Positions 1-36,611 of a stretch of 50,395 bases of DNA are shown here, piece by piece. The notes beneath the pieces are model-generated. The model saw only the letters and a list, made by a program, of their open reading frames with translations, made no database searches and had not been told where the DNA came from. Numbering within the stretch: the stretch's first letter is position 1; each line of letters opens with the position of its first letter. The stretch comes from a virus. Its lineage: Duplodnaviria > Caudoviricetes. Where the stretch lies: the IMG/VR virus record IMGVR_UViG_3300030107_000806, positions 1 through 50,395 of that record; one strand, given 5' to 3'. Made by a program: the position numbers and the translations under genes.

Positions 1-1839
1 TTTATTCTTACATGGAATAAAGCTTTTGGTGAAACAGTAACAACAGGAAACTTACTTCCTAATTCTGGAGATGGTGTAGACTGGAACTCTAGTAGTACAG
101 ACCAAATTAATTCTGCTAATTCTTCTGGATATGTAAGTAATGGTAGTACAGTAAATGGATTTGATGTTACTTGTTCTACTTCTCAATCTAACTGTGGTTA
201 TAGATATAGTGTAGGTGGAGATTTTGAAGTTACTGGTACAGCAACAGTAAGCGTAGATGATATAGCATTAACAAATAATTCTATTACTCAATCAATGCTT
301 GATAATGGTATAACATTAAATAGTTATATTGATGTTGCTAACTGTGAAAGTACAGAAGGTAATTGTGAATCTAAAGGTGGTGCTAATGATTCTCATACAA
401 CTACAGTACAATTAGAAGATTCTAGTGGAAATGTATTAAGTACAACAACACAAACAAGAACAGAAGTTACAGGATTTCAAGGTAATTGTAATGGTTACCC
501 CGGCACAACTACAACTGGTATAACAACAGGATGTGGTCAGTACAATGATAGAATTATTTATCTTGGTGTAGGTGCAAATAGAGTAGATTGGTCTTGGTCT
601 GGTACAGATAGTAATTACACAAATCAATCTAGGCAAGGTCCAAATTTATTAGGGTCATCTTTAACAATGACTTATAATAATACTGAGTTTAGTCCTATTG
701 ATGATGACTCTCAAGAAGTTATTGATGATATAGATGAAACAATTGATGATGCTATTGATGATATAGATTGGGAAAATGATTATACTTGGGATGATAACTG
801 GTATGAAGACGAGTATACTTGGGAAGAAGATTTTTATTTTGAAGAAGAATATGTTATGGATGAAGACATATACTTTGAAGAATTTGAAATGGAAGAATTT
901 GACATAGGTGAATTTGAGCAACCACCAATGTTGGAAGAGTTTGACGAAATAGATTTTGAAGAAATGCCTACAATGGAAGAGGTATTTTTTGAAGAAGATT
1001 ATATAGAACCTCCAATGATGACAGAGGAACTATTTACAGAAGAATTTGAAGAAGACTTTACAGATTTTTTAGAAGAGACTGGCATGGAAGAAGAGTTCAT
1101 GGAGTTTCTGGAAGAGGAAGGAATAACAGCAGAAGAATTTTTTGAAGAGATAACCGAGGAGGAGTTTAATGATGAACTTACTGAGGAATCTTTTGAGGAG
1201 TTTGAGGAGCCATTGGAAGAAGTCTCAACAGAGGAAGAAAGCATACCAGAGACTGTTGGAACTAAAGAAGAAACAATGGAAGTTAAATCTGAATCAGAAT
1301 TAAAAGAAGAAAAAGAAGTAGCCCAAAATGAATCAAATGAACAGGAGGAAGAAGTTCAAGAAGAAGAATCCGATAGCACAGGAACTGAGGAGTCCGAAGT
1401 ACAGACAGCAGAAAGTGAAGAGCAAGAAGATATACAATCGGAAGACAGAGAAATGGACACCAACACAGGGATTACTACAGATGTTGCAAAAGTAGAAAGT
1501 AAACTAAAAAAGAATTTAAAAGCTATAGCAAAACAGATAGCAAAAGTAACAAAGATTAACACTCAAAACTTATCAAAAGAGGATTTATTTTTTAAAAGTA
1601 ATACATTAGACGCCTATAATAAAGTACAGTTTTATAAATCAAAAGAAATTTATACTGACCAAAACTTAGATTTGTTTAATCAAATTGATTTAGGCGTCTA
1701 TAGTAAAGATATTTACACAACTGTAACTCTTGCCAGTTATGTAAATAACGACCCTGTAGAAATACATAAGAAAAAATTACAGGATATTCAAGCAAGAAAA
1801 AATAAAATACTAATGGAATTGGAGGTTCTTAAACAATGA
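1..1839 (+). CDS. Probably secreted/envelope protein with a very long Asp/Glu-rich central region (5'-truncated by window)
   Basis: Frame is open from base 1 (FILTWNKAFG|ETVTTGNLLPN..., like the end of a signal peptide), so the ORF-track start at 295 is internal. Cys-containing N-domain, long acidic tract, coiled-coil C-terminus. Confidence 0.75.
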   Translation, partial: FILTWNKAFGETVTTGNLLPNSGDGVDWNSSSTDQINSANSSGYVSNGSTVNGFDVTCSTSQSNCGYRYSVGGDFEVTGTATVSVDDIALTNNSITQSMLDNGITLNSYIDVANCESTEGNCESKGGANDSHTTTVQLEDSSGNVLSTTTQTRTEVTGFQGNCNGYPGTTTTGITTGCGQYNDRIIYLGVGANRVDWSWSGTDSNYTNQSRQGPNLLGSSLTMTYNNTEFSPIDDDSQEVIDDIDETIDDAIDDIDWENDYTWDDNWYEDEYTWEEDFYFEEEYVMDEDIYFEEFEMEEFDIGEFEQPPMLEEFDEIDFEEMPTMEEVFFEEDYIEPPMMTEELFTEEFEEDFTDFLEETGMEEEFMEFLEEEGITAEEFFEEITEEEFNDELTEESFEEFEEPLEEVSTEEESIPETVGTKEETMEVKSESELKEEKEVAQNESNEQEEEVQEEESDSTGTEESEVQTAESEEQEDIQSEDREMDTNTGITTDVAKVESKLKKNLKAIAKQIAKVTKINTQNLSKEDLFFKSNTLDAYNKVQFYKSKEIYTDQNLDLFNQIDLGVYSKDIYTTVTLASYVNNDPVEIHKKKLQDIQARKNKILMELEVLKQ

Positions 1840-2324
1840 AGATAATGGATAAACTTAGTACATATGCTGCCCTTATAGGCGTTATAGGAGCTATAGGTGG
1901 AGGTTTTTATGCATGGGGAGAATTTAATAATCGTCTTTCTGTTTTAGAAAATGAACCACCAGTTAATTTACAACCCTTAGTAGAAAAAGATAAAGAACTA
2001 GCAAAACAATTTGATGAAGTATTATTATACGCTAATGAATATAAAGTAGATTTAATAGACAGAATTAAAAAGGTTGATGATAAAATACAACCTGTAGATT
2101 TAACTATTGTATTTAAAGAAATAGCAAAAATTAGAGAACAAATAGCTATGATTGATATACCAGAACCAGTTATTTTAGACCCTTTATATCAATCTATTAA
2201 AGCACTTGAAACAATAATAGCAGAAGTTTCTAAACAAATTGCAATAGCTTTAAAAGAAAATGAATTACAAGATGTTCAAATAGAAGAAATTAAAGCTAAA
2301 TCAAATAATCCTTTAAGTAATTAA
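1836..2324 (+). CDS. Membrane-anchored coiled-coil protein
   Basis: N-terminal TM helix (YAALIGVIGAIGGGFYAW) then heptad-rich sequence; ATGA overlap with the upstream gene. Confidence 0.8.
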   Translation: MKIMDKLSTYAALIGVIGAIGGGFYAWGEFNNRLSVLENEPPVNLQPLVEKDKELAKQFDEVLLYANEYKVDLIDRIKKVDDKIQPVDLTIVFKEIAKIREQIAMIDIPEPVILDPLYQSIKALETIIAEVSKQIAIALKENELQDVQIEEIKAKSNNPLSN

Positions 2325-2325
2325 T

Positions 2326-2541
2326 ATGAATATAAAAGATACAGTTTGGGTGGTTGGTATTATTCTTGCTCTTGGTGTAACTTGGGGCATGACATCGCAA
2401 AGAATTTCTGCTATGGAAAGCGACATGGACAGATTAGAGTCTGCTTTAATAACTTTTACTAAAATGGAAACTAGACTAGCAGTTATTGAAACAGAGGTAA
2501 AAAATATGAATAAGAAATTAGATAACATAGGAATAAAATAA
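2326..2541 (+). CDS. Small TM + coiled-coil protein
   Basis: TM helix (VWVVGIILALGVTWGM) followed by coiled coil; tightly packed in the operon. Confidence 0.8.
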   Translation: MNIKDTVWVVGIILALGVTWGMTSQRISAMESDMDRLESALITFTKMETRLAVIETEVKNMNKKLDNIGIK

Positions 2542-4598
2542 TGGCAAAAAGAGACTTTAAAGAAATTCCAAAGGCAGCTCAACCGGGTCAAGTTCCTGTA
2601 GGAACAGCTCAAGTAGATATTGATAAATATATTACTGACCAAGTTAAAGACCCAAAGGTTGCTCAAGCTGCTAAACAAGCTTATACAACACAAACTGTAC
2701 AACAAAATGAATTATTACAAGGTGCTACGCAAACAGCTCCGACAGCAGTAGGAGCAAGAACTTTAACAGCACCTACTATAACTGGAGCAACTCCTGCAAG
2801 TGCTACAACAATTACAGGACCAACAGCTATATCCGCACCAACAACTACTGCGGCAACTGGAACAGCTCAAACTGGAACAGCAGCTACTGGTACTCTTGGA
2901 ACACAAGCACAGGTAGCAGCACAAACAGGAACTTTATCTACTGGTGCAACTCCAGCAGGTCAAACAGCAATACCGACAGGTCAAGCAATTGCACAGGCAG
3001 CAAGTGGAACTTTATCTACTGGTGCTTTAGCACAATCTATTACAGGAACTGCGGCAACTGTAGCAGCACAAACACAAAATTTACCGACAGCTATTCAAGC
3101 AGCAGTAGGAAATAATCCTGCTTCTGTAACTGCGGCAGTTGTTAATCAACCTACAGCAGTTAATGCACAAATTGCAGCGTTACCTACAACAACTTTAGTT
3201 TCATCACAATTACAAACTTTATTACAAGGAATTGATACAGGTACTATTCCACCTTGGGCAAGAAGTGCAGTCGATGCAGTTGACGCACAGTTAGCACAAA
3301 GAGGAATGAGTCGTTCTTCTGTTGGAAGAGACGCATTGATTAATTCTATTATTCAATCTGCTGTTCCTATTGCACAAGCGAATGCTTCTATGCTTCAACA
3401 AACTGCAATGGCTAACTTAAATAACCAACAACAAGCAGAAGTTTTAACAAAGCAACAACAGTTTCAAAGAGATTTAACTAACGCTGAAAATCAAATGAGA
3501 GCAGGTACAGCAACTGCTGGATTTGAACAACAAATGGGATTAGCTAATTTACAAAATGCACAAGATGCAGTAATGGCTACAGCAAATCAACAGCAACAAG
3601 TTCGTTTACAAAACTTAGCTAACTTACAATCAACATCTCTTAATAATGCTCAGTTACAACAGCAAATGAGTTTAGCTGGAATGAATAATCAGCAATCAGT
3701 AGCATTAGCAAATGCTCAACAAGTTGCTGGTATGGATGTTTTAAATTTAAATAATCAACAACAAGCAGTTATATCTAATTCAAATTTATTTAGAACTTTT
3801 GAACAACAAAATTTAAGTAATGAACAACAATCAACTTTAGCAAATGCAGCAAAGTTAGCAGCATTAGATATGGCTAACTTAAATAACAGACAACAAGCTC
3901 AAGTAATAAATGCTCAATCATTTTTAAATATGGATATGACTAATCTTAGTAATAGTCAACAAATAGCGGTGCTTAATGCACAACAAAAACAACAAGCTAT
4001 GTTATCTAATCAAGCAGCAACAAATGCTTCATCACAGTTTAACGCAACAAGTCAAGCTCAGACTGACCAGTTTATGGCTAACTTAACTAATACAGTTGCT
4101 CAAAGTAATGCACAGCGTAATGATGCTATGTCACAGTTTAATACAACCAATGCTAATAGAATTGCAGAAGTTAATGCAGGTAATACTTTAGAAGCTGATA
4201 GATTAGAAGAACAACTTAATTCACAAATTGCTCAGTATAATTCTAATCTTAATTTTCAACGAGACCAATTCAATACACAAAATGCTTTAGCAGTTGAGCA
4301 ATCAAATGTTCAATGGAGAAGACAAACTAATACTGCTAATACAGCAGGACAGAATGCAGTTAATCAAGCTAATGCAATGAATGCTTTTAATCTTAGTAAT
4401 CAAGGATTATCTTTTCTTTGGCAAGAGATGAGAGATGCAGCTAAGTGGGAATACGAAGCTTCAGAGAATGATGAAGAAAGAGCAGCAAGTTTAGCAGTTG
4501 CGGCATTACAAAACGAAGCGGCAAGTGATGCATCAAAGGCAGACCTTATTAAAAAAATTGGTGGTTTTGCTTTAGATATATGGAAAAATAGACCATAA
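2541..4598 (+). CDS. Gln/Ala/Asn-rich internal virion (ejection) protein
   Basis: Thr/Ala-rich N-part, quasi-repeats like NLNNQQQA, position at the start of the internal-virion block. Confidence 0.7.
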   Translation: MAKRDFKEIPKAAQPGQVPVGTAQVDIDKYITDQVKDPKVAQAAKQAYTTQTVQQNELLQGATQTAPTAVGARTLTAPTITGATPASATTITGPTAISAPTTTAATGTAQTGTAATGTLGTQAQVAAQTGTLSTGATPAGQTAIPTGQAIAQAASGTLSTGALAQSITGTAATVAAQTQNLPTAIQAAVGNNPASVTAAVVNQPTAVNAQIAALPTTTLVSSQLQTLLQGIDTGTIPPWARSAVDAVDAQLAQRGMSRSSVGRDALINSIIQSAVPIAQANASMLQQTAMANLNNQQQAEVLTKQQQFQRDLTNAENQMRAGTATAGFEQQMGLANLQNAQDAVMATANQQQQVRLQNLANLQSTSLNNAQLQQQMSLAGMNNQQSVALANAQQVAGMDVLNLNNQQQAVISNSNLFRTFEQQNLSNEQQSTLANAAKLAALDMANLNNRQQAQVINAQSFLNMDMTNLSNSQQIAVLNAQQKQQAMLSNQAATNASSQFNATSQAQTDQFMANLTNTVAQSNAQRNDAMSQFNTTNANRIAEVNAGNTLEADRLEEQLNSQIAQYNSNLNFQRDQFNTQNALAVEQSNVQWRRQTNTANTAGQNAVNQANAMNAFNLSNQGLSFLWQEMRDAAKWEYEASENDEERAASLAVAALQNEAASDASKADLIKKIGGFALDIWKNRP

Positions 4599-4607
4599 TA
4601 ATAAATA

Positions 4608-5051
4608 ATGAACGATATTGAAGCAACTATAAATTTACTTTTAGATGCTAAAAATTATAAAGATATGTTTAATAAAGATGTTTCATCTGTTGTTGAATAT
4701 ATTTTACCAGCTATAAAACTTAATCAATATAGAGTTTTTAGAAGAGGTGATAAACCTTATGCATATACAAGTTGGGCATATATGAATAAAGATTCATCAG
4801 AAAAATTTCAACAAACTGGTGTAATAGAACATGAGTCTTGGTGGAATAATGGTAATGAAGTTTGGCATATTGATACAGTTGTCGAAGAAGGTAATGATGT
4901 TCTTCCTATTCATAGGTGGACATCAAATAATATTGCTGAATTAAAAGGTGATAAAACAAAAATAAATTGGATAAGAATAGGAATGAAAAATAATAATTTT
5001 TATGTTAAAAAAACTGGACACGCATTTGCAAGGAGTGAAATAAATGGGTAG
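4608..5051 (+). CDS. HlyC/RtxC-like toxin-activating lysine acyltransferase family protein
   Basis: ILPAIKLNQY...PYAYTSWAYM...WNNGNEVWHID matches the HlyC pattern (LPAI..GQ...P.AYCSWA...W.SG.R.W.ID); 147 aa. Confidence 0.75.
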   Translation: MNDIEATINLLLDAKNYKDMFNKDVSSVVEYILPAIKLNQYRVFRRGDKPYAYTSWAYMNKDSSEKFQQTGVIEHESWWNNGNEVWHIDTVVEEGNDVLPIHRWTSNNIAELKGDKTKINWIRIGMKNNNFYVKKTGHAFARSEING

Positions 5052-6300
5052 TATATTTAGAAAAATAAAACGAATCGTTAAAAAAAATCCTTTAACTCGA
5101 ATAATTAAAAGAGTAGGTAAAGGAATTGCTGATGTTGGTAAAAAAACTTGGCAAGGTATTAAACGAATTGGTGGTAAAGCTATGGCAGCTTATGGTAAAA
5201 TAAGTAAGAAGCTTGGACCTATAGGTATGATAGGTCTGTCAATGGCTATGCCTTATTTACTTGGTGGCTTTAGTGGAGCTGCTGGTGGACTCTGGACAAA
5301 TTTTGGAACTAAAATGGGTGGAGTAATTGGTAAAGGCGGAACTGTTTTACAAAAAGGTTTAATGCATAGTCAAAATCCATTTTTAAAAGTTATGGGTTAT
5401 GCTGGTAAAGGAATGTATAATACTGCTAACTTTATTGGTGGAACTACTCGAGGTATTTCTCAAACTATTTCTAAAACTTTCGGACAATTTGCACAAGGAA
5501 ATGTATCACAAGGATTTGCAAATCTTTATCAGGGAACAACAGAAGTTTTATCTGGTAAAGCTGGTATGGGTACAATGAAATATATTGATTCTTCTATGTT
5601 CGCAAAAGCTATAGGAGTTCCGGGAAAACATATGACAGGTGTAAACTTAGCAACACAAAATTTAGGAACACTTGTTCAAACAGGTGGTGTTAATTTAGGT
5701 AATATGAATATAGGAAATAAATTTGCTTATGAAGCTATAAATAAATCTATGTTAAAAAATGAAGCATTTAAAAGATTAAGTGGTGAAGGATTAAAATATC
5801 ATAATACACTTGTTAATAATGTTGGCTTAGATGACCAAACAGCTTTCCAATATATTAGTAATAATGGTTATGACTCAGCAACAGGTATATTAGATAAGAC
5901 TGCATCAATGGATTTTAAAGCTGGTCTTAAACCAAATGAGTATGCTTGGACTGGTCAAAATATAAATAAAACTGTTGACGCTTATAAGTTACAAACTGGT
6001 GGTGGTTTTCATTATAAAGCAAAAAAAGATGGTGATGTATTTCAAACTGAAGAAAGTATCTTATCTAAAAAGAAATCATGGAAAGATGCCGCAGCAGCAG
6101 CAGCAAAAAATTTATTCTCAAATGACCAAGAAGAAACACCAGTATATGCACCTAATGCATATGAACAACTTAATTCTGTTCATCCTAATTATGCTGGTAC
6201 AGACATAACTGGTTCAGCAGATGCAGGATTTATAAGTACAGATATGAAAAAATGGTACGCATTGATGAATAAAAAAATGAATATAACGGGGAGTAATTAA
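5044..6300 (+). CDS. Gly-rich internal virion/ejection protein with basic amphipathic N-terminus
   Basis: MGSIFRKIKRIVKK... amphipathic helix, hydrophobic Gly-rich segment; overlaps the acyltransferase stop by 8 nt. Confidence 0.7.
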   Translation: MGSIFRKIKRIVKKNPLTRIIKRVGKGIADVGKKTWQGIKRIGGKAMAAYGKISKKLGPIGMIGLSMAMPYLLGGFSGAAGGLWTNFGTKMGGVIGKGGTVLQKGLMHSQNPFLKVMGYAGKGMYNTANFIGGTTRGISQTISKTFGQFAQGNVSQGFANLYQGTTEVLSGKAGMGTMKYIDSSMFAKAIGVPGKHMTGVNLATQNLGTLVQTGGVNLGNMNIGNKFAYEAINKSMLKNEAFKRLSGEGLKYHNTLVNNVGLDDQTAFQYISNNGYDSATGILDKTASMDFKAGLKPNEYAWTGQNINKTVDAYKLQTGGGFHYKAKKDGDVFQTEESILSKKKSWKDAAAAAAKNLFSNDQEETPVYAPNAYEQLNSVHPNYAGTDITGSADAGFISTDMKKWYALMNKKMNITGSN

Positions 6301-6345: not shown

Positions 6346-6885
6346 ATGGCAGAAATAAATAAAACAGAACCAAATAAGTTTGAACAAGTAGGAATGAATC
6401 CTTTTAATTCTCCTACACCGGGAGAATCATTGACTGTTTCTCCAGAAACTCGTCATTCATGGGAGAGTCCTCCACAACAAACAAATATTCAACCTGTTAT
6501 GGAACAGTTATTTTTACAATTAACTGAAAAAGAAACTTATATTGAATTACTTAATCTTTTAAATAATGGCACACCAATAGACCAATTAACACAAGTTATT
6601 CTTTATAGAGGAATGACAGAAGGTATCTATAATGTTGACTTAATGTTATTATTAATTGAACCAACTATGTATTTATTAATTGCTATTGCAGAAGAAAATG
6701 AAATTGAACCAGTTATCTATGAAGAACAAGATGATGATTTAGCAGAAACTGAAACTGTTCAAAAACAAATTAGAAATAAAAAACAATCTGAAATTAGAAA
6801 AGATAGTGTACCTTCATCTATTTTACAACGAGTAAAAACTCTACCAAAGTTAGATGAATTACAAACAGAAGAAGAGGTAGGATAA
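6346..6885 (+). CDS. Hypothetical virion-associated protein
   Basis: 179-aa ORF, AAGGA RBS, PxPGESLT...WExPP motif seen in podophage structural blocks. Confidence 0.7.
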   Translation: MAEINKTEPNKFEQVGMNPFNSPTPGESLTVSPETRHSWESPPQQTNIQPVMEQLFLQLTEKETYIELLNLLNNGTPIDQLTQVILYRGMTEGIYNVDLMLLLIEPTMYLLIAIAEENEIEPVIYEEQDDDLAETETVQKQIRNKKQSEIRKDSVPSSILQRVKTLPKLDELQTEEEVG

Positions 6886-6886
6886 T

Positions 6887-8689
6887 ATGGCATTAAATTT
6901 TGGTGATGTAGCATTAAACTTAGCAGCAGGTGCAATTGATAAAGATGAGAAGTATCGTCAAGATGCTTTAGAACAACGCTATAAAGAACTCGCAGATAAT
7001 AAAGAACTATACAGAGCTTTAGCAACTACTCGTTATTCAAAAGATTTAGAAAAATATTATGCAGAGACAGAAAAGTATGATGCTTTAAAAAGTGCCTACA
7101 AAGAAATTCAAGATAAAAATTTATCTAAGAGAGAAGCGGCAATGAAAATTATTGGTGCTACTCCAGAGTATGCATTCCAATATCAAAATGCTAAAGATGA
7201 AACTGTGCAAGAAAATTTAATTCAAACTGTAATGTCCGGATTTAAAGATAAAACTAGAACAGAAACAGTCGGTGGTGGAGCAGGGTCTCCGGAAACAACT
7301 AAAGAAGTTGCAGATGGATTTACTTTTACTCACTCTGGTTTAAATATACAAGCACCAGACCCAGAAGATTATTTTCAAGACCCTAACTATTGGGGCAAAC
7401 TTGCTAAAGAAATTGAATCTGGAACTGTTGGTCCTCTTTCAAAACAAATTTATAAATTAATGGGTAAACAACCAGCAGAAGTAGACCTTGACCAACTAGA
7501 ACAAAAAGCTGGTACAACAATTCGAGAAGATATAGACCCAATTCCTTATAGTTCTGGTAATACAGATGCTGATATTCCGGGAATGATAACTAATCCAGAT
7601 AATTCTGCATTTGCAAATGATAGTAAAGCATTAGGTGTTCTTAATACAAAGTATCAAACTTACGCAGGTGAAGCACAAACTGGTAATAAAGCATCTATTC
7701 TTTCTGGAATAGCTGTTCTAGGTAATGGTGTTAAAGATATGGTTGCTAAAAAAGAAGGTGATGATTGGGTTATTACTGATGAAGGACAAGTTTTATTTAA
7801 TCAATCTCGACAAATTTATAATCAAGTTGTTAATGATTTATACTTTGGTATTGTTAAAGCTGATGGTAAATATGCAGGAAGAGATGATTTATTTACAGAT
7901 GAAATTATTCAAAGTATGTATTTAAATGAAGTTAGACGAAGAACTTTTACTTTAAATAATAAAAATGTATTTGGAGCTATAGGTTTAGATACAGGTGATA
8001 TTAAAGGAACATTTATGATACCAACAAGTGTTCTTCCAATCAATACAGTATTACCTGCCGGAGTAAAAGATGGATTACAAGCTCATTTAAATGAAGTATT
8101 TGCAGATTCTGAAGAAAATTTATTTCAGCTTTATCCGCAATTAATTGCTGAGTCAAAAGCATATCTTAATTCTGAAGGAATAACAACAAAAGATACTGAT
8201 GGTGGTACTGAAGGTACTGGTGAAAAAGTTGCAAGTGAAACAACTATTACAGATTTATGGAAAAATAATAGAAATAAATCACAAAAAGAAATTATAGAAA
8301 TGTTAGAATCTTTAGGTTGGAAAGTTCCAGATGAATTAAAAAATAAAAAAATAACTTTAGCACCTTCAGATTCTAATGAAGTTATTGAAAATGAAGATAC
8401 TGTACAAGATGAATTAATAGATGGTGACAATCCAAATAAAAATAATAATAAAAAAGAAAATAAAAATAAAAAATCTACAAGTAGTGGTGTAGGTGATAAA
8501 CCTTGGTTATTTTCTGATGGAACTTTTAATCCTAACTATGACCCCGGTAAAAAGAATACAAAACCCGGACAAAATTCTTATGGAAATTTAGATGGTAATG
8601 AATATACAGTAGGAACAGAAGCAAATGAATATCTTAAAGCAAAAAATTTATACGAAAGAGAACAACGAAAAAATAAATCTTGGTGGTAA
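6887..8689 (+). CDS. Internal virion protein
   Basis: 600-aa ORF, GAGGT RBS, sits just before the largest virion gene (T7 gp15-like position). Confidence 0.65.
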   Translation: MALNFGDVALNLAAGAIDKDEKYRQDALEQRYKELADNKELYRALATTRYSKDLEKYYAETEKYDALKSAYKEIQDKNLSKREAAMKIIGATPEYAFQYQNAKDETVQENLIQTVMSGFKDKTRTETVGGGAGSPETTKEVADGFTFTHSGLNIQAPDPEDYFQDPNYWGKLAKEIESGTVGPLSKQIYKLMGKQPAEVDLDQLEQKAGTTIREDIDPIPYSSGNTDADIPGMITNPDNSAFANDSKALGVLNTKYQTYAGEAQTGNKASILSGIAVLGNGVKDMVAKKEGDDWVITDEGQVLFNQSRQIYNQVVNDLYFGIVKADGKYAGRDDLFTDEIIQSMYLNEVRRRTFTLNNKNVFGAIGLDTGDIKGTFMIPTSVLPINTVLPAGVKDGLQAHLNEVFADSEENLFQLYPQLIAESKAYLNSEGITTKDTDGGTEGTGEKVASETTITDLWKNNRNKSQKEIIEMLESLGWKVPDELKNKKITLAPSDSNEVIENEDTVQDELIDGDNPNKNNNKKENKNKKSTSSGVGDKPWLFSDGTFNPNYDPGKKNTKPGQNSYGNLDGNEYTVGTEANEYLKAKNLYEREQRKNKSWW

Positions 8690-8694
8690 AATAA

Positions 8695-11600
8695 ATGGCT
8701 ACTTCAAATCTTAATAAAGAAGATTGGGATTTATCTTCTTTAGAATCAGCTACACAAATCCCTTCTAATATTGATAACAACCAGAGTTCTACTTCTAATG
8801 TAGCAACTAATACTATTGATACATCTGGTTGGAATATTCCCGATTATATACAAAACTATGACGACCCTACTACTATTCGTAAGATTAAGTATGGTGCGGC
8901 ACAAGAAACCTATTTGTTAGGTGATGTATGGCGATTAACTAAATCGGCATTTGAAGCTGCTATAGGTCCAGATAGTTTTGCGGAAGAAAGAGAAGAGACT
9001 GAAGAAGAAAGACTACAAAAAATTTATGATAATTTTCCAGAATTTAAATCTGGAAGATTTGATAATGATATGGCAGTATGGGGTGGAAGAAGTTTAATTA
9101 TGTTGACTGACCCTGTATATATGTTAATGCCTTGGAGTAGAGCTGCTCAAGCTGGAAAACTTTATAAAGGTTGGAAAAAATATGGAGCTGCTACAGGAGC
9201 TTTAGCTGGATTAGGTGGTACTGTTGGTGCAGCAGATATGGCAATAAGGGAATTTGCAAGAACTGGTAAAGTTACGCCAAGAAATGTAGCAATAGGTGCT
9301 ACTGCTGGTGCAGTTTTATCTCCTGCTTTTTTAGGTATACAAAAAGTTGGAGCTATGGGTTTAAATAAACTTTTTCCACAGCTTTTTAAAAATAAACAAA
9401 TGCAAAAAGAAGTTACAGATATTCTTCATGGTATCCATAAAAATAAATATAATTTAAATGATAAACAATTACAAAATGTTTATAATATTTCTAAAGATAA
9501 AAATATAATAAAATTATTTCAAGATATAGATGGAGCTGAAAATGTTTATAAAAATTATCTTAAACCAAAAGAAGAACTAACTGCTTTAGTACAAGGAATA
9601 AGAGAAGCCAGTAAAAAAGGAATTAAAATTAGATTAAAAACTTTTAAGTTTCAAGGTAAAAAATATAATGTTCGTAATTATAAAGAAAGAAAAATTCTTA
9701 GTAAAGAAATTAATAAGAAAATGGGTGAATCTCTTAAAGACCAAGCTCGTAAAGAATCAAAACTTCAAATAGAAATTGTTAAACAATTACATAGTGCGGG
9801 TGGTTTAACTTCAAGAACAACTCGTCAAATTGCTAGAATGATGACAACAAATTTAGCAAGACCAGCTTTTGGTGGAGCAGGTGGAGCAGTTTATGGTACA
9901 TTATTTACTGATAGTGATGAAGGATTTTGGAAAGCAGTTGGTGCAGGTGTAGGTATTGGTATGACACATAAAGTTTTAATGCGTGGTGGTATTAAAGGTG
10001 TACCTACAGCAGTACAAAAAGAATTAGGACAAGGCATAGTTAAAAATTATTTAAGTAATCTTGATAGATTTACAAGAATAACAATGGCTATGACACAACA
10101 AAGTAAACTTACACAACGAGGACCTATCCTTGATGAGTTTTCTAATCTTTTCTTTGCACGACCAACTGATACAGTAAGATTAAATATGTGGGGTAAGGTT
10201 GCTAAAAATCAAGATGAATCACTTGGATTAATTGGTAGTGGTAATTCTGTTGAAGAATTAGCAGAAAGAAGATTTGCATTATTAGCTGATGATATTTATA
10301 CTAAGGTTGTAGCAGGAGCAAGTCGAGATGTACAAGCAGATGCTATTAAAATTGTTAGAGGATTTAAAGGAAAGACTTCTTCTGAAGCTAAAGATTTATC
10401 AAAAAGAATTAAAAATTTTTTAGGAGATTTTAGGTCATATTATAAAGATGTAGGATTTTCTGAAAAAGAAATGTTAATAAATTATTTCCCAAGAAAATTT
10501 AACTTTAAACTTATTGCTAACAATAGAGAAGAATTTCAAAAAGATATAGTTAAAATTATTGATAATTTAAAAAGAGATAAGAAAAGTAAATACTTTAAAG
10601 ATAAAAGAAAGAGTGATGATATTGCAGAAGAATATATAAATAGTGTTCAACGAACTCATACTGACCCAATTATAGATTTTAAAAAAGCTACCGGTGGGGT
10701 AGAATATTCTAATACTTATAATTTTAAATTACCAATGAGTCAACACATTGAATTAGAAAGAGCTTTACAAGGTTCATACAAAGATGTTGAAAGTATTTTA
10801 GGTAAGTGGACAGTTAATGAAGCCGATAAAGTTTTATTAGATGTAGTACGAACAAGTGTAAAATCAATTGAATTTGCAAGAGTGTTTGGAAAACATGGTC
10901 AAGGTTTCAAAACTTTTCTTGATAGATTAAACGACCAGTATGCAAAGTCTGGGTTTAAAAAGGTTCGTGGTTTTTATGGTACTAATCCCGAAGGTGCTGG
11001 AAGTCCACATCGAAATGATGTTGAAGCAATGCATAATGCTGTTAATTCTTTTTTTAATAGGTACGGAAGAAAAGGAACAGAGGGAGAAAAATTAACTGCG
11101 GCTTGGTTATCTACAATGGCTAACTTTAGTATGATGGATAAAGTTACTATTGCAAACCTTGGTGATTTAATTCAACCATTTCAAAACAGTAGACATTGGT
11201 TATCAGCTATTCAAGGTATATTTGGTGGTCAAGGAATTAGTAGACAAATGGCACAAAAATTTACACAAGGTACAAAACAAAGTTTTAAAGATGCGTATTA
11301 CTCCGATACAACTGGTTCAACACCTTATGCTATAGGTAATAAAGGAGGTAGTGTTAGGTCTTTACTTGGTATTGCTAATGAAAAGTTTTTTAAATTTATT
11401 GGATTAGAAGCAGTTACAAATATGGCAAGACGATATGCTTATAATGTTGGGGCTATAGATACATTTAAAACAGCTAAAAGATTAGCTTTACGATTACAAA
11501 AAACTGGAGGTAAAAGTTTAAATGATTTAACAGATTCAACTTCATTAAAAGATATTAACCATCTTATAAAAACTGGTGCATTAAAAGTTGGAAAAGATGG

Positions 11601-13764
11601 AAAGACTATTTTAAATCAATCAGATATTATTAATTTTGGAAGAGTAAAAAATTTTGACGAAGCAATGCAACAGTCTTCTCTTGCTAATCTTATTGATAGA
11701 GTAGGAACAAAGACAGCTAATAGAGATGCTATTATACCAACAGTAGGAAATAGATTATTATTTACACAAACAAGAAATCCTCTTGTTCGTCTTATTGGAC
11801 AATTCTCATCATGGGCTATGGCAAAATCTGCACAAACAAATGCTATGATGACAAGAGTAGAGAGTGGTGATTTACGAACAGCAATTGGTATGCTAAGTGC
11901 ATTAACTGCTTTTGGAGCTGTTAAAGATTTACGAGACTATGTAAAGTGGGGAGAATGGGATACTGTTGATAACCTTGAAGATGACCCTCAAACATGGTGG
12001 TCAGAAGCGGCAATGCTTTCTGGTAATTTAGGTTGGCTTTCTCAAACAATGGTTAATTCTTTTGTTAGATTTAAAGGTGGTTCACCTATAGAATTTTTTC
12101 CAGCAATAAGTTATGCTAGTGATGTAGCTTCTGGAGGAAAGAATGCTGTTATGGCAGGATTAAATATGCAAGACTGGGATAAAGCTGTAAGAGATTTTTA
12201 TAGAATTATGCCTGTTCCAACATTAAGAGCTATTCTTGATAGAATGGGTGTACCTTATATGGCATATCATAAAGACTTTAATATTAATCAAGACTACGAT
12301 AAAAAGAAAATATTAAAACCAAATATGTTTGCAGAGGGTGGACTTGCTACACAATCAAGAAAACTATTTGCGACTGGTGATATTGTTAAAGAAGAAAAAG
12401 AAAATAAAGAAGAAGTTTCTTTTGTAAATGCTTTTGATGAAGCAAGAAATAATAGACAAGAATTATTTATGTGGAATGGTAATCCTCATACAACAAGAAA
12501 AGCTGATGAGTCGGATGAACAATATAAAAATTTTTTAGGTGTTGACAAATTAGATAAGGATGTTGTTCTTAAAACTAATCACACACCGATAGAAGAAAAA
12601 GTATTTGAAGAAGTTACAGAAGATGCTCCAGAAAATAAACCAGTTAAAGTTATAGTAAAACAAAAACCAATTAGTATTTTTAATAATCCTTTAAACTTAG
12701 AACGAACTCAAAATTGGGCTGGTTCATTAGAAAAAGGGTATGGTGAGAATGAAAGATTTGCTATTTTTGATAATCCTATTATGGGAATTAGAGCAGGAAT
12801 TAGAGATATTAATACAAAAGTTGATAGATTAGATGGGGATGTTTCAAAAATTATAACATCGTTTGCTCCTAAAAAAGAAAATAAATACTTAAATAATTAT
12901 ATTAATTTTGTAAAAAATAAAATAGGAAAAGATATAATTACAAAAGCAGATGTTCCTAATGTAGTAAAAGCTATGATAGAATTTGAAAATAAACCTTCAG
13001 TTGCTAGATATTATTTAGATAATCCGGAATGGTTTGATGAAGCTATTCGTTTAGAAAAATTTGATTTAGATAAATCTTATAAATATGTAGATGAAAATAG
13101 AAAAGAATTTCATAGTGGTGGTATGGCACACACACATGGACCAAAGAAACCAAAGAAGACTAGCAGTTGGAAATCTTTGTTTACTTCTAATGCGGCTTAT
13201 GGCGGAGATAGTTCTAGTAGTGGAAGTAGTTCTAGTTCTTCTAGTAATACTGCTTTTAATGATAGCAAAGAAAAATATCTAGCTAGTACACAAGGTGGAA
13301 CTAATACTAATAATAATGTTACTGTTAATAGTAATAATAATAATGATAGTAATAATAACAATACATTTCTAACTGGTACAGATATTACAATTCCACTTCC
13401 GGGTGAGGATAAAGAAGTTGTTAAAGAAAAAATGAAAAGAGTTTGGGAAGACAAAGAAATGAAAGCAGGAGCTTGGAAAAAGTTTGATGCATTTGGTGGT
13501 GAAGCTAATATTGGTGGAGAATTATTTTTACAATCAGCAGGAACAGGTTTAGAAATAGATACAGGAATAAGAGCCGATGCTACTTGGCAAAGAGGTGATA
13601 CATTTATACAAGGACAATATGACGATGGCGACTGGTCTGTAATAGGTAAGAAGGGTATTCTTGAAGCCGGTGTAAAAGGTGATGAAGACCACACATCTGG
13701 CTATATAGGAGCAAACATATCCTTTAAAAGTGGCGGATTACTTGACAGAAAAAGACTTAAATAA
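8695..13764 (+). CDS. Large internal virion protein with a C-terminal lysozyme-like domain
   Basis: 1689 aa; Gly/Ala hydrophobic helices; NNPLNL...FAIFDNPIMGIRA...FAPKKEN...YINFV resembles the NNPGNI-type muralytic domain; T7 gp16-like position. Confidence 0.75.
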   Translation: MATSNLNKEDWDLSSLESATQIPSNIDNNQSSTSNVATNTIDTSGWNIPDYIQNYDDPTTIRKIKYGAAQETYLLGDVWRLTKSAFEAAIGPDSFAEEREETEEERLQKIYDNFPEFKSGRFDNDMAVWGGRSLIMLTDPVYMLMPWSRAAQAGKLYKGWKKYGAATGALAGLGGTVGAADMAIREFARTGKVTPRNVAIGATAGAVLSPAFLGIQKVGAMGLNKLFPQLFKNKQMQKEVTDILHGIHKNKYNLNDKQLQNVYNISKDKNIIKLFQDIDGAENVYKNYLKPKEELTALVQGIREASKKGIKIRLKTFKFQGKKYNVRNYKERKILSKEINKKMGESLKDQARKESKLQIEIVKQLHSAGGLTSRTTRQIARMMTTNLARPAFGGAGGAVYGTLFTDSDEGFWKAVGAGVGIGMTHKVLMRGGIKGVPTAVQKELGQGIVKNYLSNLDRFTRITMAMTQQSKLTQRGPILDEFSNLFFARPTDTVRLNMWGKVAKNQDESLGLIGSGNSVEELAERRFALLADDIYTKVVAGASRDVQADAIKIVRGFKGKTSSEAKDLSKRIKNFLGDFRSYYKDVGFSEKEMLINYFPRKFNFKLIANNREEFQKDIVKIIDNLKRDKKSKYFKDKRKSDDIAEEYINSVQRTHTDPIIDFKKATGGVEYSNTYNFKLPMSQHIELERALQGSYKDVESILGKWTVNEADKVLLDVVRTSVKSIEFARVFGKHGQGFKTFLDRLNDQYAKSGFKKVRGFYGTNPEGAGSPHRNDVEAMHNAVNSFFNRYGRKGTEGEKLTAAWLSTMANFSMMDKVTIANLGDLIQPFQNSRHWLSAIQGIFGGQGISRQMAQKFTQGTKQSFKDAYYSDTTGSTPYAIGNKGGSVRSLLGIANEKFFKFIGLEAVTNMARRYAYNVGAIDTFKTAKRLALRLQKTGGKSLNDLTDSTSLKDINHLIKTGALKVGKDGKTILNQSDIINFGRVKNFDEAMQQSSLANLIDRVGTKTANRDAIIPTVGNRLLFTQTRNPLVRLIGQFSSWAMAKSAQTNAMMTRVESGDLRTAIGMLSALTAFGAVKDLRDYVKWGEWDTVDNLEDDPQTWWSEAAMLSGNLGWLSQTMVNSFVRFKGGSPIEFFPAISYASDVASGGKNAVMAGLNMQDWDKAVRDFYRIMPVPTLRAILDRMGVPYMAYHKDFNINQDYDKKKILKPNMFAEGGLATQSRKLFATGDIVKEEKENKEEVSFVNAFDEARNNRQELFMWNGNPHTTRKADESDEQYKNFLGVDKLDKDVVLKTNHTPIEEKVFEEVTEDAPENKPVKVIVKQKPISIFNNPLNLERTQNWAGSLEKGYGENERFAIFDNPIMGIRAGIRDINTKVDRLDGDVSKIITSFAPKKENKYLNNYINFVKNKIGKDIITKADVPNVVKAMIEFENKPSVARYYLDNPEWFDEAIRLEKFDLDKSYKYVDENRKEFHSGGMAHTHGPKKPKKTSSWKSLFTSNAAYGGDSSSSGSSSSSSSNTAFNDSKEKYLASTQGGTNTNNNVTVNSNNNNDSNNNNTFLTGTDITIPLPGEDKEVVKEKMKRVWEDKEMKAGAWKKFDAFGGEANIGGELFLQSAGTGLEIDTGIRADATWQRGDTFIQGQYDDGDWSVIGKKGILEAGVKGDEDHTSGYIGANISFKSGGLLDRKRLK

Positions 13765-13803: not shown

Positions 13804-13867
13804 TACAGGATAGCTACAGGTAGTATTCTGTATAATAACAACTCGCTTAATGAAAGGAGCAAATATG
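13804..13867 (+). promoter_or_regulatory. ROSE-like RNA thermometer in hsp20 5' UTR
   Basis: Upstream hairpin (13804-13832) plus CUC(G)CUU (13842-13848) pairing with SD AAGGAG (13854-13859) with a bulged G. Confidence 0.65.
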
Positions 13868-14281
13868 AACCTACCTACTAGGGTCTTTGACCCATTTAAA
13901 AATATGACTGTTGGCTTTGATAATATCTTTGACCAACTCTCAACTCTATCGGACTTTGATATTCCGAACTATCCACCCTACAACATAAAGAAAATTGATA
14001 AAGAAAATTATCAATTAGAAATGGCATTGGCAGGGTTTACAAAAGCAGATGTTATTGTAGAGGTAAAAGAAAATACTTTAACAATATCTGGTAAGTCTTC
14101 TGATAAAGAAGAAGATAGTTTTGTTCATCAAGGTATAGCTCGAAGAGCATTTAAAAGACGATGGACTTTAGCAGAACATCTTGAAGTAGATGAAGCTAAA
14201 TTAAAAGATGGTATTCTTATTGTGAAGATGAAATTAAATCTTCCAGAAGAAAAGAAACCAAAAACAATCACAATAAAATAA
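13865..14281 (+). CDS. hsp20: Small heat-shock protein Hsp20 (IbpA-like)
   Basis: NYPPYNI, LEMALAGF, HQGIARRAFKR, AKLKDGIL, PEEKKP motifs; start moved to 13865 behind AAGGAG. Confidence 0.95.
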   Translation: MNLPTRVFDPFKNMTVGFDNIFDQLSTLSDFDIPNYPPYNIKKIDKENYQLEMALAGFTKADVIVEVKENTLTISGKSSDKEEDSFVHQGIARRAFKRRWTLAEHLEVDEAKLKDGILIVKMKLNLPEEKKPKTITIK

Positions 14282-34391: not shown

Positions 34392-36611
34392 ATGATGGCA
34401 GAACAAGAACAACCACAAAAAGATGACGAACAAAAGCAAGACGACACTCGTCTAGCTGGTTTTGTCTATAATAAATTTGAAGGATGTGAAAGGTCTCGTA
34501 GAAATGACGAGGAACGATGGCTACAGGCGTTTCATAACTATAGAGGAAAATACTATAAGAATGTTAATTTTAGAGAACATGAAAAGTCAAAAGTTTTTGT
34601 AAAGGTTACAAAGACTAAAGTATTAGCAGCGTATGGACAGATTATTGATGTTCTATTCTCTGCAAATAAGTTTCCCATCTCAGTTGAAGAAACTAAAGTA
34701 CCCGAAGGTGTAGCAACATACGCACACCTCAATCCCCTAAAGGAGCAAATGGGTGACAATCTTCAAGAGTCATCCCCATCTATAGAAGGTAATTTAAACT
34801 ATAGACCCGGTAATGGTCTTTCCTCGACCCCCTTCTCAGAACAACCGGAACAGTCTCCACTTGGTTTTGAAGGAGATGGGAAATCTCTTAAACCGGGAAC
34901 AACATTTAATGATTTAACTGGTAAGAAAGATATACTTGGTTCATTAGATAAAGAACTAGGTGATGATGCAATTCAAGAAGGTCCAGCACCAATGCCGGAT
35001 ATGGCACAGATTAAACCTGCTTCAAAGATTGCAAGACGCATGGAAAAATTAATCCATGATGAAATAGATGAATCAAATGGTTCACAAGAATTAAGAAGTT
35101 CTGTTTTTGAATCAGTTCTTCTTGGTACAGGTATTATTAAAGGTCCTTTTACTTTTAATAAAACTTTACACAAATGGAATAAAGAAGAAGGAAGTGACGA
35201 AAGAAATTATAGTCCAGAAACAACAAGAGTTCCTAGAATTGAATTTGTAAGTTGTTGGGATTTTTACCCAGACCCAAATTCTAAAAGTTTAGATGATGCT
35301 GAATATGTAATTCATAGACATAAATTAAATAGAAACCAATTACGAGATTTAGCTGACAGACCATTTTTTAATAAAGAAGAAATTCTTGAAACATTAAACG
35401 ATGGTCCTAACTATAAGAAAAGAACTTTTGAATCTCAAATAGAATTAGAAGATAGTGACTATCAAGCAGACAATGCTCGTTATGAAGTATTAGAATACTG
35501 GGGTATTGTTGATAGAAAAATTTTAGAAGACTCACAATTAAAAATTCCAGAAGGAATGGAAGAAGAAAGTGAGTTTCAAATTAATGCATGGGTAACTGCG
35601 GATAGAGTTCTTAGAATGGTAATGAATCCATTTAAACCTTATCGTTTACCTTATCAAGCATTCCCTTACGAAAAAAATCCATATAGTTTCTTTGGTATTG
35701 GTGTACCAGAAAATATGGATGACGCACAACAAATTATGAATGGTCATGCAAGAATGGCTATTGATAACTTAGCTTTATCTGGTTCACTTGTATTTGATGT
35801 TGACGAGTCAGCATTAGTTGCAGGACAAAGCATGGACATATATCCGGGAAAAATATTTAGGCGACAAGCTGGAATGCCCGGACAAGCTATACACGGATTA
35901 AAGTTTCCAAACACATCAACAGAAAACATGATGATGTTTGATAAGTTTAGACAGTTGGCAGATGAGTCAACAGGTATACCATCATACTCACATGGACAGA
36001 CAGGTGTTCAAAGTATGACACGAACAGCTTCTGGTATGTCAATGTTACTTAGTGCTGCTAATTTAAATATTAAAACTGTTATAAAGAATTTAGATGATTT
36101 CTTGTTGAGACCTCTAGGCGAAGCATACTTCCAATGGAATATGCAGTTTTATCAAGGTGATTTAAATATTGAAGGTGACTTAGAAGTTAAAGCAACTGGA
36201 ACTTCTTCTCTCATGCAGAAAGAAGTAAGGTCGCAAAGACTAACTATGTTCTTGCAGAGTGTACAAAACCCTGCTATAGCCCCATTTGTTAAAATACCAG
36301 AACTAATAAAAGAACTTGCTTATACATTAGACCTTGACCCAGAAGCAATAATCAATGACCCTAATGAAGCAGAAATTTACGCAAAGATAATAGGATTACA
36401 AAATGCTAGACAACAAGGACCTACAGAAACTACAGACCTTGGTGGTGAAGCCGGAATGGCAGGACCTCAAGGAGTACCTAATCAAACTCCAGCAGTTGAC
36501 GGCTCGGGAGTTGGCGATGGCACAATCGGAACAGGAGGTGTTCCGCAAACAGGGGAAATGGAATTTACTGGAGCAGTTAATCCATCTGCCGGAAACAATC
36601 AAGTCATATAG
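34392..36611 (+). CDS. Portal protein
   Basis: 739 aa between terL and capsid; LGTGIIK, WDFYPDP, PYSFFGIG, RTASGMSML motifs of podophage portals. Confidence 0.9.
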   Translation: MMAEQEQPQKDDEQKQDDTRLAGFVYNKFEGCERSRRNDEERWLQAFHNYRGKYYKNVNFREHEKSKVFVKVTKTKVLAAYGQIIDVLFSANKFPISVEETKVPEGVATYAHLNPLKEQMGDNLQESSPSIEGNLNYRPGNGLSSTPFSEQPEQSPLGFEGDGKSLKPGTTFNDLTGKKDILGSLDKELGDDAIQEGPAPMPDMAQIKPASKIARRMEKLIHDEIDESNGSQELRSSVFESVLLGTGIIKGPFTFNKTLHKWNKEEGSDERNYSPETTRVPRIEFVSCWDFYPDPNSKSLDDAEYVIHRHKLNRNQLRDLADRPFFNKEEILETLNDGPNYKKRTFESQIELEDSDYQADNARYEVLEYWGIVDRKILEDSQLKIPEGMEEESEFQINAWVTADRVLRMVMNPFKPYRLPYQAFPYEKNPYSFFGIGVPENMDDAQQIMNGHARMAIDNLALSGSLVFDVDESALVAGQSMDIYPGKIFRRQAGMPGQAIHGLKFPNTSTENMMMFDKFRQLADESTGIPSYSHGQTGVQSMTRTASGMSMLLSAANLNIKTVIKNLDDFLLRPLGEAYFQWNMQFYQGDLNIEGDLEVKATGTSSLMQKEVRSQRLTMFLQSVQNPAIAPFVKIPELIKELAYTLDLDPEAIINDPNEAEIYAKIIGLQNARQQGPTETTDLGGEAGMAGPQGVPNQTPAVDGSGVGDGTIGTGGVPQTGEMEFTGAVNPSAGNNQVI

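Follow-up and report, generated by a model that had tools for sequence, protein, structure and literature searches.

The window, by which we mean the whole 50,395-nucleotide stretch of DNA analyzed, represents an HTVC115P-like pelagiphage, an ocean phage whose hosts are SAR11 bacteria. It encodes a 147-aa acyltransferase of the TAAT/HlyC family in which Tyr occupies the position of the catalytic His, directly followed by an overlapping gene for a 418-aa Met-Gly protein of the virion module. The enzyme belongs to this family by profile and by fold, its active site is conserved, and its coupling to the partner gene recurs across viral loci. Judging from comparative sequence evidence, we lean slightly toward acyl-ACP-dependent lipidation of the partner's N-terminal module, at Gly2 or at a Lys residue, as the role of this gene pair. 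The phage-only Tyr subclade, the conserved pairing, and the Lys-less N-termini of some partners are new to this analysis. The gene itself is already labeled in the GenBank records of six Pelagibacter phages, and no study on the function of the pelagiphage acyltransferase gene was found in the literature.

The locus and its surroundings comprise the following features:

2541..4598, + strand: upstream structural-module protein of 685 aa, its position conserved in HTVC115P, HTVC103P, and Slicky01
4608..5051, + strand: Tyr-variant acyltransferase (TAAT/HlyC family) of 147 aa with Tyr17, Tyr31, Asp89, and Arg123, identified by Pfam, AF2, Foldseek, and residue mapping
5031..5035, + strand: AGGAG, a Shine-Dalgarno-like element 8 nt upstream of the partner ATG, read from the sequence
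5044..5051, + strand: 8-nt overlap of acyltransferase stop and partner start, ATGGGTAG, read from the sequence
5044..5079, + strand: N-terminal 12-residue module of the partner, from the position-wise composition of 86 distinct N-termini
5044..6300, + strand: 418-aa virion-module protein of no known family, putative acyl acceptor
6346..13764, + strand: three downstream genes for proteins of 179, 600, and 1689 aa, candidates for internal-core/ejection roles judged only by their order and size

The initial annotation had placed a HlyC-like gene inside an internal-virion block lacking RTX toxin and type I secretion genes, with its stop overlapping the start of the 418-aa gene. The overlap is present and spans 8 nt, an arrangement that suggests translational coupling of enzyme and partner. 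Pfam and PHROGs searches of the 40 window proteins bore out the missing secretion context, returning no RTX, HlyB/HlyD, ABC exporter, or TolC family, and also found no ACP gene in the window. The block label holds as a description of gene order and size only, as the 418-, 179-, 600-, and 1689-aa proteins matched no Pfam or PHROG family; the upstream 685-aa protein had no family match in the same two resources. The order of the 179-, 600-, and 1689-aa genes is the same in HTVC115P and HTVC103P, and a language-model look-up connected the 1689-aa protein to gp16-like lysozyme/SLT giants as sub-threshold leads (0.81–0.88). By gene order, the 418-aa partner is a putative ejection protein.

Assignment of the 147-aa protein to the HlyC family was confirmed by an above-cut-off match to Pfam HlyC (PF02794; E 2e-16; score 60.5 bits, cut-off 25), covering profile positions 11–90 of 127. 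The protein matched the sequence of ApxC (4whn) with an E-value of 1.4e-6, and a profile built from the phage clade did so with an E-value of 2.6e-17; no NCBIfam model was matched by either the enzyme or the partner. The AF2 model of the enzyme (pLDDT 92.5) retrieved three ApxC chains of 4whn as its top Foldseek hits (E 1e-8, TM 0.71–0.73), followed by GNATs. For the comparison with ApxC and the HlyC Pfam that had been proposed initially, Foldseek, Pfam, and the clade profile agree on a TAAT/GNAT-like fold.

Related loci were collected with two alignments, keeping the best 80 loci per scan. By sequence, the enzyme falls into a phage-restricted subclade in which the catalytic His is replaced by Tyr and the Asp/Glu and Arg residues are kept. 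This subclade occurs on viral contigs and is hardly present in the 185,579 prokaryote genomes searched. Among cultured phages, two different queries recovered the enzyme in 6 of 50,697 records, all of them SAR11 phages. Two further candidates, P0073 and P0090, were rejected as relatives: both are surface proteins rich in repeats, and their match is to a short W-x-x-G...W-H-I-D-like word.

Both parts of the initial active-site reading, a retained catalytic Asp region (WHID, residues 86–89) and a replaced catalytic His (DAKNY, residues 13–17), stood up to residue mapping. In the clade profile alignment, Tyr17 aligns with His24 of ApxC, equivalent to the His23 position of HlyC, and Tyr31 lies at the Asn35 position of ApxC. 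Asp89 aligns with the FID of ApxC, i.e., its catalytic Asp93, and Arg123 with the Arg of AIRV, which would be Arg121 of ApxC given an 11-residue tag offset. Across 160 phage enzymes, position 17 is occupied by Tyr in 155 and by Phe in 4, position 31 by Tyr in 78 and His in 71, and position 89 by Asp in 85, Glu in 73, and Asn in 2, while Arg123 is kept in all 160; this pattern indicates that the active-site positions are under selection. Among 123 representatives, the catalytic-His position holds His in 63 and Tyr in 47. Because Tyr at this position is conserved clade-wide, we regard the change as a replacement rather than decay.

In classical GNATs, Tyr acts as the general acid, and by analogy Tyr17 could plausibly protonate the thiolate in place of His. 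His-to-Ala mutants of ApxC and CdiC are still active, and the direct-attack model leaves His no task other than protonating the thiolate (PMC8510554). The missing His nevertheless raises an unlikely alternative, in which a TAAT-fold protein without catalytic activity acts as an assembly factor or chaperone and, like T7 gp13, escorts the amphipathic N-terminus of its partner into the virion with no acyl transfer. Four enzymes have Phe instead of Tyr and two have Asn at the acid position, the phage proteins (126–155 aa) are shorter than bacterial TAATs (~170 aa), the window has no ACP gene, and the gene sits in a slot typical of small assembly proteins (T7 gene 13 before gene 14; lambda K and I before J). 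Against this, the near-invariance of Tyr (155/160), Asp/Glu (158/160), and Arg (160/160) is hard to square with a mere binder, and TAAT mutants lacking the His are still active. Homology to T7 gp13 itself was rejected at the sequence level, with clade-profile hhalign giving only 4.3% probability over 10 aligned columns and Pfam pointing to no other family. We know of no established enzymatic role for T7 gp13.

The partner of the enzyme is recognizable across viral loci by its start. In 156 of 159 viral loci, the next ORF carries ATG-GGN within its first five codons; of 733 other ORFs with lengths of 100 aa or more, 8 do so. The loci are no independent sample: single linkage of the enzymes at 50% identity yields just 3 clusters. 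At 70% identity, 17 of 19 enzyme clusters have exclusively MG partners; three enzyme-bearing loci have partners starting with MS or MD. Gene overlaps of 1 to 19 nt between enzyme and partner are found in nearly all related loci.

A Met-Gly start followed by an amphipathic helix is shared by three unrelated partner families (137, 8, and 6 members), whose bodies have no BLAST links. In siphovirus pelagiphages, the partner is a gpJ-like tail-tip protein. All three families have the N-terminal motif M-G-[GS]-[VI]-V-x-x-[IV]-[VI]-x-x-V in common, and Gly2 is its sole invariant residue besides Met1 among 86 distinct N-termini that were chosen for their MG start. The enzyme tree requires at least three switches of partner family, so that closely related enzymes serve different families with only this 12-residue motif in common. 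Such a pairing suggests, from sequence comparison, that these phages may equip the protein in contact with the host membrane with a lipid anchor.

Conservation of the gene pair, on which the initial proposal depended, thus extends well beyond close relatives but is not universal. In HTVC103P and HTVC104P, the enzyme gene is part of the replication module and about 18 kb away from the partner gene, located among early/replication genes and adjoining the gene for an ssDNA-binding protein. These two phages, together with the confinement of the enzyme to SAR11 phages among cultured ones, which hints at a host-specific need, are the points in favor of a non-neighboring substrate: a host protein of envelope or regulatory function, or some other protein of the phage, with adjacency reflecting shared late expression only. 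We consider this quite improbable in view of the MG-amphipathic start that directly follows the enzyme in nearly all loci, through three families and repeated switches. Moreover, the HTVC103P enzyme nests in the tree among partner-linked enzymes, and the unlinked arrangement therefore looks derived.

For the 418-aa partner, the sequence confirmed the Met-Gly start, the basic amphipathic N-terminus, and the hydrophobic segment described initially. The protein begins MGSIF, residues 1–56 are basic, hydropathy reaches its maximum of about 1.1 at residues 56–79, and the protein has a conserved KLGPIGMI hydrophobic segment and a poorly ordered body; the AF2 model is poor (pLDDT 45.5), and an atlas look-up returned unnamed viral clusters only. 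Homologues number 317 at E≤0.001, and among the best 120, 116 start with MG and the other 4 are truncated sequences. The eight Gly-Lys dipeptides reported for the first 195 aa were counted correctly. Given the composition (19.5% Gly, 11.5% Lys), they hardly stand out: shuffled sequences average 4.5, and at least 8 occur in 5% of 10,000 shuffles, so the count is only marginally above chance and weak as evidence.

Two acceptors can be weighed. Acylation of the N-terminal Gly, which the initial annotation had raised as altered chemistry, gains support from sequence comparison, namely the invariant Gly2 and partner N-termini without Lys: in 41 of 141 tail-tip partners, the N-terminal extension before the conserved domain is free of Lys, and no Lys is common to the three partner families. 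That a Tyr-for-His TAAT fatty-acylates the Gly alpha-amine of a tail-tip or ejection protein in ocean phages is, in our estimate, a tentative proposition that falls well short of even odds. A Met-Gly start is not specific to enzyme-bearing loci, which counts against it. Two complete 65-kb viral genomes encode MG-start partner homologues and no TAAT, as judged from a whole-genome search with the clade profile in which positive controls were recovered; locus L198 has an MG start without a TAAT; and lambda J also starts with MG.

Classical TAAT chemistry on Lys epsilon-amines in Gly-Lys context, within about the first 60 residues of the 418-aa protein and with Gly2 kept for other reasons, is a rival reading that we hold to be rather unlikely. 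All characterized TAATs acylate Lys (PMC8510554). A 43-sequence partner alignment shows Lys56 in every sequence and Lys22, Lys33, and Lys52 with a conservation of 90% or more; Lys33 and Lys52 are each preceded by Gly, and a GKGIAKVGK-like stretch recurs among partner homologues. By our reading of the alignments, the enzyme-less CRP-701 has Ala where enzyme-linked tail-tip proteins have the Lys of a G-V-L-I-N-K motif, and the MG starts that exist without an enzyme fit acylation at Lys as well. The Lys-less tail-tip partners and the absence of a Lys common to the three families speak against this reading, as do the near-chance GK count and the sharing of only the 12-residue motif by the different partners of related enzymes. 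The conserved Lys residues are also present in the enzyme-less Slicky01 homologue, which as a query matched only itself among cultured phages, so that few enzyme-less sequences are available for comparison with the podovirus partner.

Some loci in which the enzyme is absent or altered also differ at the partner start. The 21 enzyme-less CRP-701-type tail-tip proteins begin with MP, MV, or MA and continue into a long run of Ala, Gly, and Val, and an NlpC/P60-like DUF6950 gene fills the exact slot that the TAAT occupies in siphovirus pelagiphages. In locus L042, the one such case identified among the 2 Asn enzymes, the acid position is Asn and the partner is non-MG.

In the mechanism that we infer, the 147-aa protein would be an active TAAT-fold acyltransferase, with Tyr probably serving as the general acid for the leaving thiolate and with the Asp/Glu base and Arg kept. 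In the infected cell, host acyl-ACP, the donor expected from the family, would supply the enzyme with a fatty acyl chain, which it would pass on to the amphipathic module at the N-terminus of the virion protein whose translation directly follows. The substrate would be the 418-aa protein in the source phage and the gpJ-like tail-tip protein in siphovirus pelagiphages. The acceptor would most likely be the Gly2 alpha-amine after Met removal, and otherwise Lys, e.g., the Gly-Lys sites Lys33 and Lys52. Upon virion opening, the lipid and the amphipathic helix would together anchor or insert the partner into the host envelope; relatives lacking the enzyme seem to rely for this on a long hydrophobic stretch at the N-terminus.

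For non-model phages, little is known about the way in which tail tips and ejection proteins breach the envelope, and we found no report in the literature of a tailed-phage virion protein lipid-modified by a phage-encoded enzyme. Marine viral contigs carry the cassette by the hundreds, and among SAR11 phages it is present in two unrelated morphotypes. If correct, our proposal would describe a new entry mechanism in one of Earth's most abundant virus-host systems and widen the substrate range of TAATs past RTX toxins and CdiA. It also bears on whether Tyr can stand in for the catalytic His of TAATs.

Several known systems resemble the phage locus in part. HlyC, CyaC, and ApxC (PF02794; 4whn) share its Pfam family, fold, aligned Asp (D89) and Arg (R123), and the placement of a small enzyme gene directly before the presumed substrate gene. 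The phage enzyme differs from them in its Tyr for the catalytic His, in being ~25 residues shorter, and in belonging to a viral subclade hardly seen in prokaryote genomes. Its locus, unlike RTX systems, has neither an RTX protoxin nor type I secretion, and the partner is a Met-Gly virion protein. A small gene directly upstream of the first ejection or tail-tip protein is likewise found in T7 (gp13/gp14) and lambda (K and I before J), although T7 gp14 starts with Met-Cys.

Eukaryotic viruses possess N-myristoylated penetration proteins, and N-myristoyltransferase has a GNAT fold. The phage system would likewise combine a virion protein that begins Met-Gly and acts on membranes with a possible writer from the GNAT superfamily, and if the acceptor is Gly2, it would be a bacterial-virus counterpart employing a chemistry not known for TAATs. 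It differs from N-myristoyltransferase in having no sequence relation to it, in its putative acyl-ACP rather than acyl-CoA donor, and in being virus-encoded, with N-terminal acylation hypothetical here.

A functional precedent comes from class IV contact-dependent inhibition, whose TAAT, CdiC, attaches a lipid to the receptor-binding domain of CdiA for binding to the outer membrane of the target cell (PMC8510554). Its gene lies directly before the substrate gene, and the enzyme has a His/Asp dyad and acylates Lys1467 with 3-hydroxydecanoate (PMC8510554). Both systems would have co-opted a TAAT for a non-RTX protein engaging the target outer membrane, with the enzyme gene preceding the substrate gene. 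CdiC is bacterial, keeps His/Asp, and modifies an internal Lys, whereas the phage enzyme has Tyr and a putative acceptor. CdiC loci without a working enzyme are described there as having lost the acceptor residue (PMC8510554), which parallels the partner changes in L042 and the CRP-701-type loci.

The virus record of 50,395 bases is rated approximately 92% complete. Its minus strand encodes a T7-type replication set with family A DNA polymerase, primase-helicase, endonuclease I and ribonucleotide reductase, and its plus strand a podovirus structural module, comprising an SU10-like portal and adaptor, the major capsid protein and tail fibres. Its nearest cultured relative, Pelagibacter phage HTVC115P, has an identical gene order and shares 75% identity in the enzyme and 47% in the partner. 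In the window, these two are encoded as follows:

4608-5051, plus strand: 147-aa protein of the HlyC/toxin-activating acyltransferase (TAAT) family, the enzyme
5044-6300, plus strand: 418-aa protein encoded directly downstream, the partner

The 147-aa ORF matches Pfam HlyC with 60.5 bits against a threshold of 25, and ApxC is matched as well. The initial annotation had reported a HlyC-like gene overlapping a 418-aa ORF in a window without RTX or type I secretion genes. This observation is confirmed, the 40 window proteins including no member of an RTX or type I secretion family, and the interpretation placed on it, lipidation of a Gly-Lys-rich ejection protein, is partly supported and sharpened. 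An AF2 model of the enzyme resting on 37 relatives (pLDDT 92.5, pTM 0.85) has ApxC chains as its top three PDB matches (E 1e-8, TM 0.71-0.73), followed by ordinary GNATs, in agreement with the TAAT/GNAT-like fold expected earlier. Sequence and model together identify the enzyme as a real TAAT-fold protein, a phage-specific Tyr variant with putative acyl-transfer chemistry. A candidate relationship to T7 gp13 failed at the sequence level.

HMMER was run exhaustively against 1.84 billion representatives and gave 255 matching proteins at E ≤ 0.001. When 123 of these (120-240 aa) are aligned, 63 have His and 47 have Tyr in the catalytic-His column, with a median length of 142 aa for Tyr forms versus 160 aa for His forms. 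Alignment of the Tyr-form profile with ApxC places the Tyr on the His of the S-P-L-H motif, the acid on the Asp of F-I-D and the Arg on that of A-I-R-V, bearing out the earlier reading that the catalytic Asp region is kept and the His replaced. Among 160 enzymes from the viral loci examined, 155 have Tyr and 4 have Phe at the His position, 85 have Asp, 73 Glu and 2 Asn at the acid position, and all 160 keep the Arg at position 123; at the ApxC Asn35 position, 78 have Tyr and 71 His. This pattern indicates a working, rewired site as opposed to decay. In classical GNATs, Tyr can act as a general acid. The Tyr-type site fits a direct-attack mechanism that leaves deprotonation of the amine to Asp and gives His only the protonation of the ACP thiolate, activity surviving a His-to-Ala change in both ApxC and CdiC (PMC8510554). 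Two composite proteins also came from the search of representatives. P0083 (412 aa) carries two TAAT domains fused in tandem, one with a canonical S-P-M-H motif, followed by one that, on visual comparison with the other and without an alignment, appears to have Gln at the His position. P0057 (276 aa) combines an unrelated Gly/Thr-rich N-terminal part with the C-terminal half of an enzyme like that of the window (79% identity, residues 73-147); recombination, a frameshift or mis-assembly may explain it.

As far as these searches reach, their results mark the Tyr-type subclade as a phage gene. Two different queries against 50,697 cultured-phage records returned the same six, all Pelagibacter phages, and two IMG/VR scans gave at least 392 and at least 515 confirmed relatives, the best 80 from each scan being retained. 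A pattern scan of 185,579 prokaryote species, each represented by one genome, found only two loci, one on a 1.6-kb MAG contig and the other a weak match in an archaeon. In GenBank, the gene is labelled toxin-activating lysine-acyltransferase in six Pelagibacter phages, and a preprint on those phages names HlyC solely in a figure legend (10.1101/2019.12.14.876532). A full-text literature search found no publication on the enzyme's function in phages, although bioRxiv supplements may hold more.

In the window, the enzyme stop overlaps the partner start by 8 nt, with AGGAG 8 nt upstream. The enzyme ORF was present in all 163 viral loci examined. In four of them the contig stops short of a downstream gene; for the remaining 159, the partner was taken as the longest ORF starting -60 to +200 nt from the enzyme stop. 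A Met-Gly start (MG), scored as ATG-GGN within the first five codons, occurs in 156/159 downstream ORFs versus 8/733 of the remaining ORFs (≥ 100 aa) in these loci, many of the loci being near-copies of each other. At 70% identity the enzymes form 19 clusters, 17 of them wholly MG, and at 60% identity 14, of which 12 are wholly MG; single linkage at 50% leaves just 3. Because the overlap geometry differs among loci (1, 4, 8, 10, 13 or 19 nt), the Gly codon is not imposed by the overlap. After residue 70, the partner bodies fall into three families that BLAST does not link at E ≤ 1e-3:

Partner families and their Met-Gly starts
gpJ-like tail-tip proteins of siphoviruses: n = 137, MG in 134
350-530-aa family: n = 8, all MG
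418-aa protein family of the window: n = 6, all MG

Common to all three is a 12-residue start, M-G-[GS]-[VI]-V-x-x-[IV]-[VI]-x-x-V, followed by an amphipathic or hydrophobic stretch. On a maximum-likelihood tree of 29 enzymes, the 418-aa-family label requires 3 changes in all bootstrap trees and the gpJ label at least 3, and two enzymes with 418-aa-type partners nest within a clade of tail-tip-linked enzymes (97/94 support). The enzyme has therefore changed partner families, each time landing before an N-terminus of the shared type. Its coupling to a Met-Gly amphipathic N-terminus is among the strongest gene-neighbour signals obtainable from sequence.

The pairing, whose conservation the initial annotation had put up for checking, extends well beyond close relatives but is absent from HTVC103P and HTVC104P, where the enzyme lies in the replication module, adjoining an ssDNA-binding protein gene, and the partner homologue (MGSVF start) stays in the structural module, approximately 18 kb away. 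The unlinked HTVC103P enzyme nests among linked enzymes on the tree. A search with a partner-family alignment gave 30 loci and placed the enzyme directly upstream of the partner in 12, all MG; the other 18 comprise 16 MG, one truncated and one MF start.

The 418-aa protein starts MGSIF, is strongly basic to approximately residue 56, and then becomes hydrophobic and Gly-rich. Of its 317 homologues at E ≤ 0.001, the best 120 include 116 with MG and 4 that are truncated. Eight Gly-Lys dipeptides occur in 195 aa (19.5% Gly, 11.5% Lys), a count offered previously as a signal; shuffled sequences average 4.5 and reach 8 in 5% of cases, so that it is weak evidence. The gene directly precedes those for 179-, 600- and 1689-aa proteins, an order resembling T7 genes 13-16. 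As the protein matches no known family, its model is poor (pLDDT 45.5, with residues 1-222 helical at low confidence), and the 1689-aa protein gives weak leads to gp16-like giants and nothing stronger, 'ejection protein' is a designation that we infer.

For the acceptor, the sequences point both ways, to Gly2 and to Lys. Besides Met1, Gly2 is the sole invariant residue of the shared N-terminal module in 86 distinct N-termini chosen for an MG start, and 41/141 tail-tip partners have no Lys between Gly2 and a conserved G-[VI]-L-x-N-K motif (35-73 residues). The non-MG exceptions start M-S-F-V-V-D (L088, L089) or M-D-I-M-A-D (L042); the last, an IMG/VR contig locus (enzyme 992-1408, partner 1399-4440), has one of the two enzymes with Asn at the acid position and may be a decaying enzyme-substrate pair. 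On the Lys side, 43 sequences of the 418-aa family retain Lys22, Lys33 and Lys52 in at least 90% and Lys56 invariantly, Lys33 and Lys52 being preceded by Gly, and Lys is the acceptor for every known TAAT (PMC8510554).

Relatives lacking the enzyme were also compared. In Roseobacter phage CRP-701, as in 21 related viral loci, a gpJ-like protein is homologous to the pelagiphage protein from its approximately residue 36 onward; no TAAT was found in 29/29 loci of the CRP-701-type scan. The 21 full-length N-termini of this type begin with MP, MV or MA, and a hydrophobic stretch of 50-70 residues, rich in Ala, Gly and Val, comes next. The enzyme's slot, flanked by minor tail protein L and the gpJ-like protein, is occupied by an NlpC/P60-like gene with an E-H-D-C motif:

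L170 (Roseobacter phage CRP-701), 2802-3233: DUF6950 slot gene; likewise in L171-L194

This comparison suggests that the same task can be solved in two ways, by a lipid together with an amphipathic helix or by a plain hydrophobic segment. MG starts also occur in one locus without a TAAT (L198) and in lambda J, which K and I precede. In two IMG/VR viral genomes rated 100% complete (L201 and L202; 65 kb), the 418-aa protein has homologues with the N-termini MGWLSK and MGLLSK; no TAAT was found anywhere in either, the same run detecting the enzyme in the window and HTVC103P. The homologue in a cultured relative, Pseudoalteromonas phage Slicky01, likewise without a TAAT, starts MSFLSK. The enzyme therefore accompanies MG, yet MG exists without the enzyme.

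We propose that, late in infection, the enzyme and partner genes would be translated as a coupled pair and Met would be taken off the partner, a removal established where residue 2 is Gly. The Tyr-type TAAT would move a host acyl-ACP chain onto the partner's N-terminal module, and the acylated amphipathic N-terminus would be packed in the particle; at infection, it would insert into the SAR11 envelope and help anchor the tail tip or form a DNA conduit. The closest proven analogue of such lipidation is CdiC-CdiA, in which the 3-hydroxydecanoyl group attached by a TAAT increases the affinity of binding to the target outer membrane (PMC8510554).

Several further features of the window were recorded. 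The portal and adaptor (34392-36611 and 40582-41358, plus strand) match the SU10-type Pfam families PF23899 and PF24175, matches that, at the level of sequence, tie the HMO-2011/HTVC103P-type podovirus group to a predicted SU10-like tail architecture. An Hsp20/alpha-crystallin small heat-shock protein (13850-14281, plus strand; Pfam E 4.8e-18, PHROG 432) is encoded directly 3' of the 1689-aa structural gene, an arrangement also present in HTVC103P. Two small proteins with hydrophobic N-terminal segments (1836-2541, plus strand) lie within the tail/structural block and may be lysis proteins or membrane-active virion parts; the 71-aa member has a weak, below-threshold XhlA/holin resemblance. Most structural genes of the window start Met-Ala, and the major capsid protein (39294-40265, plus strand; MGTLQ) is the sole other MG starter among the 40 listed ORFs.
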